From: Armatimonadota bacterium
Lineage (GTDB): Bacteria; Armatimonadota; Zipacnadia; Zipacnadales; VGFC01
Reading direction: 5' to 3'
Assembly (NCBI GenBank): GCA_016869045.1
Contig: VGFC01000005.1
Span: forward strand, 1 to 50,769
Length of the DNA stretch: 50,769 nt
The notes beneath the pieces are model-generated. The model was not told the DNA's origin, made no database searches, and saw only the letters and a program-made list of their open reading frames with translations. Below, piece by piece: positions 5,263 through 10,713 of the stretch. The stretch's first letter is position 1; every line of letters starts with the position of its first letter. Made by a program: the position numbers and the translations under genes.

Positions 5263-6765
5263 TCACTCCGCCGCCGGAGCCAGGGGTAGCGTCACCGCGA
5301 AGACGGTGACTCCGTCGCTGTTGTCCTCCAGCCGGAGGTCGCCGCCGTGGGCGCGGGCGATCTCCCGGGCGAGGCTCAGCCCGAGACCCACGCCGTCCAC
5401 CTTGCGGCTGCGCGACCGGTCGGCGCGGTAGAAGCGCTCGAAGACCCGGTCGCGGTCTGCCGGGGGAATGCCGTCGCCCGTGTTCGCCACGGTCAGCACG
5501 GCGGTCGACTCGGCGCGGGCTAAGCGGACCTCGACCCACCCGCCCTCGCGATTGTACTTCACGGCGTTCGTCGCGAGGTTCCGCAGGACCTGGCCCATGA
5601 GGTCGGCGTCGGCCTCGATCCACACGTCAGGCTCCAGTTCGCGTTTGATGGTCAGGCCTGGCGCAACGGCCTCCAGATCCTCACAGACCCCTTCGGCCGC
5701 TTCGGTCAGGTTGACGGGCTTCGGGTGTAGCTCCAGTTTGCCCGCATCGGCCAGCGACAGCAGCAGCAGCTTGCGCACGATCTCCTTGAGCCCCTGGACC
5801 TCCTCCAGGAGGTTGTTGTAGACCCGTTGCTGCTCGGAGCCGGCGGGCGCCTCCTGCAGGGCTTGCTCGATGCTCCCCTGCAGGATGGTCAGAGGGGTCC
5901 TCAACTCGTGCGCGGCGTCGGCGCTGAAGCGACTGGCCTGGCTGAAACTGCGCTCGAGCCGGTCAAGCATCCCGTTGAACACGGTGATGAGCCGCCGGAA
6001 CTCCGTGTCGGCGCCCTCGGCGGGAATGCGCTCGTCGAGGCTGCTGGCCGTCACGCGCTCGGCAACATGGGCCAGTTGCTCCACGGAGCGCAGGGCTCGC
6101 CGTGAGATGACCCAGCTCCCGAGGGCAATCAGCAGCAGCGCGGCGGGGAGGGCCGCGAGGAGGCCATTGCGCACCCGCGCCATCTCGGCGCCGAACCGGG
6201 CGAGGCTGACGCCTACAACCAGCGTCACCTCGCTGTTCTCCATCGTGCAGAAACGCCAGGTGCCGCTCGCAGTCCGGCGCGTCGCGAATACGGGCGGCGC
6301 CACCGGCAGGAAGGTCCACGCAGGGCCGGGCGGCGCCGGTTGCTTGGGCGCCCCCGGGCCCTCCGGAGAGGCCTTGGGGGGCGCGGGAGGAGCCGGGGGA
6401 GGCGGGAAGCTGCGCAGTCGAGGGCTAGCGGGATCGGGCGTGGGGAAGCGGTCCGCTGGGAGGTCGCCCGGCCAGTTGGTAGACTGGTGGAGGACTTCCC
6501 CCGTGACGTTCTTGACCAGGACGAGGCAGCCGCCTCCCTCGTTGGTGCGGTAGCTGAGGTCAAGCCCGCCCGCGATCCAGGACCAGTGTTCGGGAGGGTG
6601 TGACACGATGGCGATGGGCCCCATCCGTTCGGCCAGCTCGCGGTCGATCCTCTGGAGGGCAATGCGCTGGACGAACGCCCACGCAGAGAGCGCGAAGACG
6701 GCCAGCACGAGGCCCGAGACCGCCACCGAGAGCAGGATGATCCGCACGCGGAAAGAGTGGCCCAT
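5263..6765 (-). CDS. Sensor histidine kinase, CusS/HprS-like (2 TM, HAMP, HisKA, HATPase)
   Basis: FSADAAHELRTPL H-box; NLATNAVKY; NTGDGIP; FERFYR; GVGLGLSLA. Pro-rich insert in the extracytoplasmic domain. Confidence 0.92.
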   Translation of the reverse strand: MGHSFRVRIILLSVAVSGLVLAVFALSAWAFVQRIALQRIDRELAERMGPIAIVSHPPEHWSWIAGGLDLSYRTNEGGGCLVLVKNVTGEVLHQSTNWPGDLPADRFPTPDPASPRLRSFPPPPAPPAPPKASPEGPGAPKQPAPPGPAWTFLPVAPPVFATRRTASGTWRFCTMENSEVTLVVGVSLARFGAEMARVRNGLLAALPAALLLIALGSWVISRRALRSVEQLAHVAERVTASSLDERIPAEGADTEFRRLITVFNGMLDRLERSFSQASRFSADAAHELRTPLTILQGSIEQALQEAPAGSEQQRVYNNLLEEVQGLKEIVRKLLLLSLADAGKLELHPKPVNLTEAAEGVCEDLEAVAPGLTIKRELEPDVWIEADADLMGQVLRNLATNAVKYNREGGWVEVRLARAESTAVLTVANTGDGIPPADRDRVFERFYRADRSRSRKVDGVGLGLSLAREIARAHGGDLRLEDNSDGVTVFAVTLPLAPAAE

Positions 6766-7454
6766 CAGGTCACCATGCGCTCCGGCAACCGCCTGAAGCG
6801 GTAGCCGACGGCCCTCACCGTCTCGATGAACTGCCCCTCGCCGGTGGGGTCGAGCTTCTTGCGCAATCGCTGGATGTAGACGTCCACCACGTTGCTGGAC
6901 GGGTCGAAATCGTAACCCCAGACATGCTCGAGGATCTGCGTGCGCGGATAGACCCGCCCCGGAGAACGCATCAGGTATTCTAGCAGGCAGAACTCGCGCG
7001 CGGTCAGATCGATCGACGTGTCTCCCCGTCGTACTTCGCGGGTGATGAGGTTGACAGTCAGGTCTCCCGCCTGGAGGATGCTGAGCTGGTCCCCCGAGGC
7101 TCTTCGGGTGACGGCGTGGATGCGAGCGATCAGTTCCTCGGCGTAGAAGGGCTTGGTGACGTAGTCATCCGCCCCGAGGTTGAGTCCCTCCAAACGCTCG
7201 CTCAGCCCCGTCCGGGCGGTCAGCAGGATGACGGGCACCGGGTTCTGCTGCTCCCGCAGATTCCGCAGGATGCTCAGCCCATCCCGGCCGGGCAGCATGA
7301 TGTCCAGCACGATGACGTCATACCGCTCGCGTTGGGCCCTGAGGAAGGCCTCCTCGCCCTCCTCCACCAACTCGACGGTGAAGCCCTGCTCGACGAGCGC
7401 CTTGCGCACGAAGCTCGCGATCTTCTCCTGATCTTCCACCAAGAGCACGCGCAT
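6765..7454 (-). CDS. OmpR-family response regulator, heavy-metal (CusR/CopR/HprR) subgroup
   Basis: [60 protein letters not shown]. Confidence 0.93.
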
Positions 7455-7499
7455 GGCTGAATCGTAGCAGACCGGGCCGCAAGGAGCAAGGCGGCGCGC

Positions 7500-7554
7500 A
7501 TTACAGTTCTGTCATCGAAGCACCGGGCTTCCTGTCATCCGGGCGGGCTATGCT
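7500..7554 (+). promoter_or_regulatory. CusR/CopR-type box plus sigma70 -10 element for the divergent operon
   Basis: ATTACA-GTTC-TGTCAT at 7500-7515; second TGTCAT at 7533-7538, 10 nt before TATGCT (7549-7554). Confidence 0.65.
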
Positions 7555-7606
7555 GCAACCGAGGTCGAGGGGTCTTCCATCACGACGCCATTCGGAGGCT
7601 TTGCAG

Positions 7607-8224
7607 ATGAACCGACGCGGCTTCACCCTCATCGAGCTTCTCGTCGTCATCGCGATCATCGCCATCCTGGCCGCGATTCTGTTCCCCGTGTTCGCGCGAG
7701 CACGGGAGAAGGCGCGACAGACGTCGTGCCTGAGCAACCTGCGGCAGATCGGCACGGCGACCCTCCTCTATGCCGGGGACAACGACGAGTGCTGCCCGGG
7801 CCACACCGGCGGCCCGACCGCCGCGACCGACTGGCCCCAGATGCTCATCCCCTACTGCAAGAACGCGCAGATCTTCCGCTGCCCGACAGGCTCCGCGGGC
7901 AACACCTCGATGTGGGGGCACTTCTACGTGGAAGGCCAAGTCCCGCTGTGCTACGGGACGAACTGCTACTACACCACCAACCAGAGCCTGGGCCAGGAGG
8001 AGGATGCGGTGGGGACGATCCTGGTTGCCGACTCGATCGGGGACAACCGCATCGGGCCGGACTACGCGCCGCGAAACGCCAAGGTCGCAGGCTGCTGGCA
8101 TGGCCTCGCGCCTCGGCACAATGAGACGCTCAACGCGGGCTTCATGGATGGGCACGCCAAGGCCATGAAGCTCAGCACCATAGAGGTCAACGACGCGGCC
8201 TGGTTCAACCCGGCAGTACCCTGA
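7607..8224 (+). CDS. Prepilin-type N-terminal cleavage/methylation protein, DUF1559 / H-X9-DG class
   Basis: [49 protein letters not shown] and C-terminal [16 protein letters not shown]. Start moved to ATG 7607 (GGAGG SD). Confidence 0.92.
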
Positions 8225-8278
8225 GGCCTTCTCGGGCAAGCGCAGACCGACACATTCTATGAGAGCGAGGGAAGCAAG

Positions 8279-10123: not shown

Positions 10124-10152
10124 GCCAGGCGACCCGAGGGTGAGCGACCGTC

Positions 10153-10180
10153 GCAGGAAGATGGTGATCGGACAGCGAAC
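10153..10180 (+). promoter_or_regulatory. Putative sigma-H-like promoter GCAGGA-N17-CGAAC
   Basis: Same hexamer, spacing and CAGCGAACT as the 5220-5247 site. Confidence 0.5.
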
Positions 10181-10312
10181 TTGCCTCTCCAAGGCCTGCT
10201 ACTCGGGCTGACGGGCCGTGACTGCGTGCTGCCCCTGCCGGGCGGTGCGCCACGCCCCCACCTGCGAGGGTAGACATCGCCCCCGCGGACCCCCAGGCGA
10301 AGGAGAGGCGAG

Positions 10313-10654
10313 ATGATGAGGAGCAAGCTTGCGAAGACAGCGTTGGTTCTGGCTGTAGGGCTGCTCGTGGTCGCGGTGTGGCATGTCGCGGCCCAGCAAC
10401 CCCAGGGCGGCCCGCCGCAGGGCGGTTTCCCAGGCGGCCCGATGATGGGCGGCCCGGGTCCGATGATGGGGGGCCCACCCCCGATGATGGGCCCGATGGG
10501 CGCGCCGCCCTCGCCGGTTGTTGTGCTCGGCGATGGCGTTGTGTACGTGGCCTTCGACGGCAAGATCACCGCGTTCGAGGCCAAGACGCTGAAGAAGCTC
10601 GCGGAGGCCACCTACTGGGAGCGGCCCGAGCCCCCCAAGCGCCCCAACCCGTAG
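10313..10654 (+). CDS. Secreted Gly/Pro/Met-rich microprotein with one PQQ-like blade (paralog B)
   Basis: Signal peptide; GPMMGGPGPMMGGPPPMMGPMG; C-terminal 43 aa are 33/43 identical to paralog A; AAGGAG SD. Confidence 0.85.
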   Translation: MMRSKLAKTALVLAVGLLVVAVWHVAAQQPQGGPPQGGFPGGPMMGGPGPMMGGPPPMMGPMGAPPSPVVVLGDGVVYVAFDGKITAFEAKTLKKLAEATYWERPEPPKRPNP

Positions 10655-10680
10655 CCCGCGTCGCCCCCTCCCGCACTACT

Positions 10681-10713
10681 CCACAGGCCGAGGCCTTGCG
10701 CCTCGGCCTGTGG
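10681..10713 (+). terminator. GC-rich hairpin, probable terminator
   Basis: CCACAGGCCGAGGC-CTTGC-GCCTCGGCCTGTGG, a 14-bp perfect stem 26 nt after the stop. U-tract is weak. Confidence 0.55.

Follow-up and report, generated by a model that had tools for sequence, protein, structure and literature searches.

Small periplasmic modulators whose genes lie divergent from a two-component system (TCS), as its nearest and strongest output, are known from cpxP-cpxRA and zraP-zraSR. The box of the E. coli regulators CusR and HprR is reported as CATTACAAAATTGTAATG, with the form ATTACA-N4-TGTAAT (PMC9302797). SilE and PcoE are described as small, exported, intrinsically disordered 'molecular sponges' under CusRS-like TCS (PMC5008109), and CopM from Synechocystis, a small exported protein controlled by CopRS, reportedly provides resistance in that it binds Cu(I) both within the periplasm and extracellularly (PMC4335983). 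The sacrificial Met-rich peptide MrpX of Azospira suillum, which is associated with YedY/MsrP, is reported to consist of methionine by 20% and of charged residues by 44%; it is under SigF/NrsF control and shares a transcript with yedY1Z1 (PMC4436054). Here we describe a locus from an Armatimonadota bacterium (Zipacnadia; Zipacnadales; VGFC01) in which an OmpR-family TCS with a CusR/HprR-type box stands opposite an operon for exported proteins, two of which are small and are called here microproteins A and B. The locus occupies positions 5263–10713 of contig VGFC01000005.1 (assembly GCA_016869045.1); the 50,769 nucleotides (nt) of this contig were analysed as a whole and are referred to as the window. 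Judged by its sequence, the locus is a TCS-controlled envelope module. Its conserved core is the TCS, the box and the microprotein only, and the folded part of the microprotein is predicted to be one beta-propeller blade of the PQQ/BamB type. The logic of such a module, a TCS with a small divergent periplasmic output, is familiar; what is new is the family of the output, and that it is paired with a CusR/HprR-type operator.

The sensor histidine kinase (500 residues; 5263–6765, minus strand) has a first transmembrane (TM) helix, a periplasmic domain with a Pro-rich insert, a second TM helix and the domains HAMP (1e-09), HisKA (1.8e-13) and HATPase_c (3.8e-27). The stop of the regulator gene (229 residues; 6765–7454, minus strand) overlaps the kinase start, and the regulator has the Pfam domains Response_reg (1.6e-29) and Trans_reg_C (4.7e-30) of the OmpR family. 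The resemblance to E. coli CusRS and HprRS (YedWV) is evident in several features: an OmpR-family regulator and a HAMP kinase are encoded divergent to their targets, the half-sites and the 4-nt spacer of the box are the same when the sequences are compared, and the heavy-metal subfamily models are the top NCBIfam matches of the window TCS. The kinase model TIGR01386 (cztS_silS_copS) has eight matches in this genome, all below its cut-off; the kinase of the locus is the best of them, and the next scores 161 bits. The best plasmid-borne relatives of the regulator are 47–50% identical, five of the top 15 being named heavy metal response regulator, and a sequence search of the PDB with the regulator gave generic OmpR-family entries only. 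The window system differs from the E. coli systems in that its sensor is unrelated by sequence and its putative targets are single-blade microproteins and pseudopilins, not cusCFBA or hiuH-msrPQ. A preliminary description of the window had recognised a TCS divergent from four exported-protein genes, and each part was found where it had been placed.

Between the divergent units lies the palindromic box ATTACA-N4-TGTCAT (ATTACAGTTCTGTCAT; 7500–7515, assigned to no strand). The pattern [AG]TTACA-N4-[CT]GT[AC]AT has one match in the window and none in any of 100 shuffles, and it is present in all 12 orthologous intergenic regions, those of the window and 11 others, with the consensus GCATTACAGTTCTGTCATGC. 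A CusR-type box had thus been correctly placed between the two units. The strict form of the box is matched once in the whole 7.87 Mb assembly, so that the organism's own genome has no second strict site; a loose match on its contig C666 was rejected for lack of the downstream elements. These elements, on the plus strand, are TGTCAT-like at 7533–7538 and, at 7545–7554, a -10-like GGG-TAnnnT. In the aligned intergenic regions of relatives, a (C/T)GT(C/A)AT-like element followed by a GGG-TAnnnT -10-like element recurs, by eye, downstream of the box. A scan for consensus sigma-70 promoters gave no sites. On the minus strand, a TGCTACGAT-type element, extended -10-like, is found at 7461–7469, 6 nt upstream of the regulator ATG, and a TGCTACCAT-like motif is at the same place in the orthologous intergenic regions (L024–L029 and L049–L054; here and below, G, C and L numbers are our handles for genomes, contigs and loci). 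No Shine-Dalgarno sequence precedes the regulator ATG (7455–7469). Because the TGCTACCAT-like element is only 6 nt from the ATG, the sequence suggests that the regulator-kinase mRNA is leaderless. We estimate that the box centre is about 53 nt from the putative transcription starts on both sides, and one palindromic site could therefore serve both divergent promoters.

Conservation of the arrangement was assessed by a kinase-only search of 79 genomes of the class, with 19 kinase candidates scored per genome and a threshold of E <= 1e-130; several of the relatives' genomes are incomplete, and the relatives are not independent samples. Kinase orthologs were found at 11 places in 10 relatives, one of them at a contig end, and a microprotein-family gene lies opposite the regulator in nine of the 10 assessable loci. 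Together with a same-genus locus of the same arrangement, which came from a microprotein search, the linkage holds in 10 of 11 loci from several families. The preliminary description had referred the conservation of its gene set to related genomes; it extends there to the microprotein with the TCS, and not to the rest of the operon, as the prepilin is in the cis operon in only two of 12 loci and the large protein in none of the 12 relatives' loci. The large protein, the two genes 3' of the kinase and the next kinase have no counterparts in these 12 loci except for paralog-level kinase matches, and the large protein is lineage-specific. From the conserved linkage and box we consider it very likely that the TCS regulates the microprotein operon. 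The same-genus locus (L024; G001:C810, 1–1927, minus strand) encodes, in this order, a microprotein, a 341-residue protein with a weak, sub-threshold DUF5666 match, and another microprotein, in which an (MGMPG)n repeat forms a tail containing 19 Met; its middle gene is unlike the large protein of the window.

Microprotein A (102 residues; 8279–8587, plus strand) consists of a signal peptide (residues 1–26), a Gly/Pro/Met linker with an MMMM run (8357–8452), a four-stranded blade (about 8453–8557) and an RPEPP tail. Its paralog B (113 residues; 10313–10654, plus strand), 60% identical, likewise has a signal peptide, a Gly/Pro/Met linker with seven Met (10397–10513), a blade (10514–10618) and an RPEPP tail. 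In an alignment of 22 members of the family, a hydrophobic N-terminal signal ending in A-x-A-Q is followed by a variable Gly/Pro/Met linker, a conserved block of about 40 residues with the pattern ..V.DG.VYVA..G.L..FDAKTL..LAEA.Y., and a Pro-rich tail, which is often RPEPP-like in the TCS-linked members. The AlphaFold2 model of microprotein B from 22 sequences has a helix at residues 3–27, a low-confidence region at 28–68, and strands at 69–73, 76–81, 84–89 and 95–100, which form blocks with a predicted local distance difference test (pLDDT) value of 86–97 and are arranged as a four-stranded antiparallel blade. A Foldseek comparison of this single blade with the PDB returned propellers as all of its listed matches, over 31–46 columns and with a best E of 0.049; by their titles we take them to be AztD, BamB, PQQ dehydrogenases and Sema. 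The blade shares with PQQ/BamB-like propellers a four-stranded meander of PQQ_2 sequence type, and two microprotein homologs have been named 'BamB' by the Joint Genome Institute (JGI). The family profile also matches eight stretches of the blade region of a 1248-residue PQQ_2 propeller (Pfam 3.8e-88) with an E of 4.5e-14. An exported single-blade fold is, on these models, the likely one, and the preliminary description had missed that the folded part of the microproteins is a blade.

The fold assignment was extended with longer members of the family. A three-blade subfamily (six sequences) is modelled as three consecutive four-stranded blades with disordered linkers between them (pLDDT 70, predicted TM-score 0.58), and this model matches YncE, BamB and BtuG with E down to 1.7e-05, 63 matches being at E <= 0.001. 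Its target-normalised TM-score to the 124-residue 2yms_A fragment is 0.79. For a four-blade member, P0054, a word search for relatives gave P0054 alone. With the family profile, 1166 cluster representatives are recovered at E <= 0.001, of which 212 reach E <= 1e-10; in the 150 best matches, a single stretch is matched in 104 and at least two in 46. Members were detected in 57 of 151 sampled genomes and 38 of 99 genera of the phylum, and look-alikes in the Atlas fall into unnamed clusters that are commonest in Armatimonadota. Five copies are present in the organism's own genome, and only the two in the window adjoin the TCS. The three other paralogs (C312:4813–5130, C80:11627–12004 and C10:40869–41282) have no box, and the one on C312 is flanked on either side by a gene for a large secreted protein.

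Could the genes be chance neighbours that form no functional unit, or could the small and low-complexity open reading frames (ORFs) be artefacts of GC-rich DNA? The G+C content of the window is 65–73%, and long spurious ORFs are numerous in it. Against this explanation stand the linkage in 10 of 11 loci and the box in all 12, from several families, together with the 1166 cluster representatives and a blade that is modelled with confidence. In addition, homologs of the large protein keep its helical segments, and a Shine-Dalgarno-like sequence lies ahead of all four plus-strand genes. We find the explanation scarcely credible.

Microproteins A and B have one blade each, short of the at least four blades per chain that close a ring. 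Since a single blade cannot close a ring, co-assembly of the two was modelled, with three copies of the B blade and three of the A blade, and with three controls. The complex scored 0.50 (runs 0.51, 0.50 and 0.47) as compared with 0.00 for the best control, a result rated as weak support, in a job that is unlike the calibration set of the tool. Of 80 solved complexes 58 attained the mark for this score, as did two of 110 mismatched pairs; at scores of 0.60 or below, only seven of the 80 solved complexes, yet both of the passing mismatches, reached it. Contacts agree by at least 84% between runs, and the pLDDT of the partners is at least 74. Propellers are reported to be 'almost always' single chains, and fragments of 2–5 blades are reported to assemble into 8- or 9-bladed rings (PMC6805158). 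The known oligomeric propellers (2yms fragments, WRAP constructs and Ph1500) are likewise reported to be built from partial chains, 2yms_A assembling into a nine-bladed propeller. They differ from the present case in that the natural gene here encodes one blade, or two to four blades with long disordered linkers. We put forward assembly of the blades into a ring as a tentative reading of these models.

The linkers are the second distinctive part of the microproteins. In mature A the Met content is 5.3% (12.5% in the linker) and in mature B 8.1% (17.9% in the linker), as compared with 1.65% in 12 other ORFs of the window. Across the family, linker Met amounts to 12.7% where the member is linked to the TCS (13 members) and to 11.6% where it is not (14 members), with 2–19 Met per tail, four of them in A and seven in B. 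This enrichment looks selected, because ATG runs against the base composition of this region (68–73% GC). The exported proteins had been described as Met/Gly/Pro-rich, which is apt for the microproteins and less so for the large protein: its disordered half of about 210 residues is mainly Gly/Pro/Trp-rich, with 4.8% Met. The large protein also has two conserved helical segments. It belongs to no Pfam or NCBIfam family, a metagenome scan gave no relative, and a search of 5.8 billion proteins gave only two homologs (51% identity over 94% of the length, and 62% over 34%), in which the helical segments are conserved.

A related tail was found away from the TCS. At G020:C411 (L039; 4085–4476, minus strand), a box promoter precedes a peptide of about 70 residues that has a TM helix and an MMMM/Gly/Pro sequence and no blade, and this is followed by a blade microprotein. 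The box is therefore associated with Met/Gly/Pro tails even at a distance from the TCS. A Gly/Pro/Met tail under the box is thus carried by three different anchors, namely the blade, the bare TM helix of G020, and the TM helix with helical domain of the large protein, and this suggests that the tail, and not the blade, is the working end.

Our best explanation of these data is a self-contained envelope response module. We propose that the TCS is related to the CusRS/CopRS/HprRS group and that its cue is periplasmic. On sensing this cue, the phosphorylated regulator would bind the ATTACA-N4-TGT(C/A)AT box, a conserved site midway between the divergent promoters, and would activate both its own, probably leaderless, regulator-kinase operon and the exported-protein operon. 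The conserved output would be a protein of about 100 residues in which a Sec signal peptide is followed by a disordered Gly/Pro/Met tail and by a single blade, predicted to be PQQ/BamB-like. Once exported, the blades probably pack side by side into ring-like oligomers that contain A, B or both, so that the thioether-bearing tails would be bundled at one face, and the Met tails might then act as a periplasmic buffer that holds Cu(I)/Ag(I) or absorbs oxidants such as hypochlorous acid (HOCl). The 475-residue large protein would carry a disordered tail of similar type on its membrane anchor, and do so in this lineage only. Taken as a whole, this explanation is offered tentatively and leaves considerable room for doubt.

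The Met-based buffering of metal or oxidant is its least certain part and is possible at best; we suggest it because of the type of operator, the Met enrichment, and the analogues CopM/CopRS, MrpX and SilE. The closest mechanistic match is copMRS of Synechocystis, in which a small exported protein is encoded with a CopRS-type TCS. As reported, CopM differs in being folded, in having no detected family in common with the microproteins and in being encoded in the same operon as its TCS, and it is for CopM that copper induction and binding are shown. SilE binds metal through His and Met motifs. SilE and PcoE resemble the microproteins in being small, exported, disordered and, as described, under a CusRS-like TCS; the window tails differ from them in being essentially without His and attached to a folded blade, the sequences have no similarity, and no sil/pco pump genes are nearby. 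MrpX shares with the microproteins a signal peptide, a Met-enriched periplasmic product, a dedicated envelope sensor system, by which MrpX is reported to be strongly induced, and a small regulon.

A number of observations weigh against this reading, and they concern in turn the TCS, the fold, the chemistry and the regulon. The kinase scores 260.3 bits with TIGR01386, its top NCBIfam match, under the cut-off of 292.55, and the match spans model positions 138–457 only, i.e. without the sensor domain, positions 1–137 being unmatched. For the regulator, the score with TIGR01387 (cztR_silR_copR) is 227 bits, under the cut-off of 279.2 and nearly equal to the 223.3 bits with the PhoB model TIGR02154. 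The 171-residue sensor domain has no match in a sequence search of the PDB at E <= 10, and across 12 orthologs it has no invariant His, Met or Cys, the invariant periplasmic residues being D, G, S, WP and WR only. CusS is known to sense through conserved periplasmic or membrane His/Met, and HprS through Met/Cys. For lack of invariant His, Met or Cys, a copper-ligand reading of the sensor was rejected. The TCS had first been called CusRS/HprRS-like, and with the scores and the sensor as they are, this likeness is confined to the DNA box. As to the fold, neither A nor B has a Pfam or NCBIfam match above threshold, PQQ_2 (PF13360) matches two of the 22 members with a non-significant best E of 0.14, and Foldseek finds nothing in the PDB for the single blade at E <= 0.001. 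Isolated single WD40 blades are, moreover, reported to be unfolded monomers in vitro (PMC6805158).

The chemistry meets similar difficulties. Linker His is 0.6% in the TCS-linked and 0.3% in the unlinked members, Cys is zero, the tails from G022, G013 and G012 have only two Met, and Leu stands in place of Met in four of the 14 unlinked members, which fits a generic flexible hydrophobic tail. The mature microproteins have 5–8% Met, as against 20% reported for MrpX, and their tails are Gly/Pro-rich and nearly uncharged; they are TCS-regulated, and a periplasmic methionine sulfoxide reductase (Msr) is adjacent in one of 12 loci, where, in G020, an MsrB-MsrA ortholog directly adjoins the microprotein. 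Co-localisation with Msr was rejected as a rule, the Msr being far from the TCS in all five further genomes checked. Finally, the promoter elements and the credible trans sites of the box were judged by eye, one locus (G054) keeps the TCS and the box with the microprotein replaced, and none of the other box-driven genes (pseudopilins, lipoproteins, Lcl_C, a phosphodiesterase-family protein and the G054 OEP-HlyD-ABC pump) is a classic copper gene. The nature of these other regulon members and the ligand-free sensor keep several rival explanations alive.

A 344-residue MsrB-MsrA fusion is encoded in the window itself at 23198–24232 (plus strand), 12.5 kb off. It has an N-terminal TM helix and, by likeness to the G020 ortholog, SelR and PMSR domains. 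As it is the sole PF01625 match in the 7.87 Mb genome, the only MsrA detected in this organism appears, from its sequence, to face the periplasm. The existence of such a fusion counts in favour of the buffering reading.

The regulon was delineated by searching the box pattern in 15 relatives' genomes, which gave 41 strand-counted matches; the reversed control gave 10. Twenty-three distinct sites lie outside the TCS intergenic regions, and 11 of them have, by eye, the same downstream elements; the other 12 lack these elements and were rejected, their number being near that of the reversed-pattern control. Five of the 11 credible trans sites precede DUF1559 prepilin genes (G012:C23, G027:C106, G018:C436, G018:C848 and, least clear, G022:C142), a clear enrichment given that there are just 63 DUF1559 matches in the organism's own 7.87 Mb genome. 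Besides the peptide in G020, the remaining sites precede an Lcl_C protein in G003, a phosphodiesterase-family protein in G022 and, in G018, two lipoproteins and one receiver-domain protein. The gene 3' of the TCS-linked microprotein in G013 also encodes an Lcl_C protein (4.5e-43). Genome G018 has five box promoters (C30, C247, C436, C848 and C888; L082, L086 and L088–L090) and no control matches, and no kinase ortholog was found in it at E <= 1e-90, with the genome 77% complete and 19 of its 73 candidates scored. Judged by these boxes, the response includes the prepilin in several lineages, as a recurrent accessory output. The link of the prepilin to the system, claimed at the outset, therefore stands at the level of the regulon and fails as a general feature of the operon.

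These sites also bear on a different explanation, namely a regulon for remodelling of the surface or envelope that involves no metal or redox chemistry. The cue would be envelope-related or nutritional, and in answer to it the TCS would exchange exported proteins, bringing in among others a particular DUF1559 pseudopilin, lipoproteins and Lcl_C proteins. The microprotein would have a structural role as adaptor or scaffold, such as that of a ring docked on a pseudopilin apparatus or capping it, with the tail as a flexible spacer. Prepilins, lipoproteins and an Lcl_C protein behind five, two and one of the 11 credible trans promoters would suit it, as would the prepilin gene immediately before a microprotein in the window, G022 and G002, the G022 prepilin being an ortholog (1.6e-109) at the equivalent position. 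The Leu-for-Met replacements and the sensor with no invariant soft-metal ligand point the same way, and DUF1559 genes in Rhodopirellula are reported to respond to general stresses (PMC2754498). However, 10 of 12 loci lack the prepilin in the cis operon, whereas a microprotein is hardly ever missing; the Met enrichment against the GC bias would need explaining; and the blade-less G020 peptide, with the same tail under the same box, indicates the tail as the working end. We consider this explanation somewhat unlikely.

The prominence of the microprotein beside the TCS can be read in another way. As the most conserved neighbour, small, exported, divergent from the TCS and sharing a palindrome with the TCS promoter, it might mainly be a periplasmic partner of its own kinase, as in the CpxP and ZraP systems, whose genes are arranged alike: it would be induced by the TCS and feed back on the sensor, and its release by oxidation, metal, proteolysis or titration by a ligand would be the signal. 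The sensor domain, which has no invariant residues of the kind that bind small molecules, would agree with this. CpxP and ZraP, however, are helical LTXXQ proteins with no relation in sequence or fold to the microproteins, which are modelled as all-beta, and Metal_resist (PF13801) matches two of the 22 members only, with a best E of 0.099. The distribution also argues against it, as the family is present in 57 of 151 phylum genomes and TCS orthologs (E <= 1e-90) in 12 of 79 class genomes, so that most members would work without this kinase, and G054 retains the TCS and box with no microprotein beside them. A partner of this type appears quite unlikely.

In the G054 locus (L054; G054:C152, 9235–14481), an identical box is followed by genes for an STN-domain protein, an OEP-family protein (2.2e-55), a HlyD-family adaptor and an ABC ATPase, a set that looks like a MacAB-TolC-like pump. 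A pump under the same TCS and box would fit a further explanation by analogy, in which the Met/Leu/Gly tail is a holdase or ligand trap that binds hydrophobic peptides, unfolded envelope proteins or amphipathic toxic compounds in defence against envelope stress or antimicrobials. Met and Leu are interchangeable within the family, as such a role would allow, and one member (L043; G034:C76, 2562–3338, plus strand) has an N-terminal PDZ domain (2.8e-15), then a Met/Gly linker and a blade. Against it, the pump is found in one lineage only and no chaperone family was detected. We regard this role as very unlikely.

The other parts of the operon can be described briefly. The first gene encodes a prepilin-type protein (205 residues; 7607–8224, plus strand; likely start ATG 7607 after GGAGG) in which an N-terminal methylation motif is followed by a DUF1559 domain (PF07963 and PF07596), as is typical of that family. 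The Pfam matches are N_methyl with 2.3e-10 and 40 bits (cut-off 21.2) and DUF1559/SBP_bac_10 with 1.6e-07 and 32.1 bits (cut-off 23.3); the C-terminal H-X9-DG match is weak (0.074). The large protein (475 residues; 8696–10123, plus strand) has a likely GTG start at 8696 after GGAGGAGGAG and is anchored in the membrane by an N-terminal TM helix. Behind microprotein B, a perfect GC-rich hairpin with a 14-bp stem, a 5-nt loop and no U-tract (10681–10713, plus strand) closes the operon, as had been proposed; the RNA fold of 10655–10730 has -33 kcal/mol and a z of -4.85, and none of 200 shuffles folds equally well. A scan for consensus terminators gave no sites here. No pump, ATPase or multicopper oxidase was found within 5263–10713, which agrees with the absence of efflux genes noted at the outset.

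On either side of the locus are further genes for membrane and secreted proteins. A second histidine kinase (916 residues; 10768–13518, plus strand) begins 55 nt past the hairpin; its long N-terminal membrane and sensor region matches nothing in Pfam, and no gene for a partner regulator was seen adjoining it. On the other side, 3' of the TCS kinase and on the same strand (1451–5208, minus strand), a 441-residue polytopic membrane protein and an 811-residue secreted protein are encoded with a 4-nt overlap. Neither has a Pfam match, and neither is kept beside the TCS in relatives.

Literature searches gave little on these components. On natural single-bladed propeller proteins, all that was returned were studies of propeller evolution and engineering from a single laboratory; nothing related emerged on two-component systems and methionine-rich proteins in Armatimonadetes, and the papers found on DUF1559 give it no function.

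In summary, the locus is a compact conserved module, comprising a sensor, a regulator, one box and a small output, in a phylum with almost no experimental genetics. The output is a large family that has no Pfam or NCBIfam model; profile libraries place neither the microproteins nor the large protein in a characterised family, which leaves the novelty assumed in the preliminary description intact. An annotation as 'copper/silver sensor' that is drawn from the transmitter half alone is unsafe, because the CusR/HprR-type operator goes together here with a sensor that lacks the customary metal or redox ligands, and its output consists of pseudopilins and disordered tails. In its boldest form, which we judge unlikely, our explanation would make the microproteins natural free-standing single blades that fold only on ring assembly after secretion, their tails forming a multi-chain thioether cluster, and the whole being an inducible trap for Cu(I)/Ag(I) or oxidants under one palindrome that serves two promoters. 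A 'single blade' has been proposed as the ancestor of all beta-propellers, and if this form of the explanation were correct, the microproteins would be its extant form. Should the blades indeed assemble, nature would provide oligomeric intermediates of the kind that had to be made artificially in work on propeller evolution.

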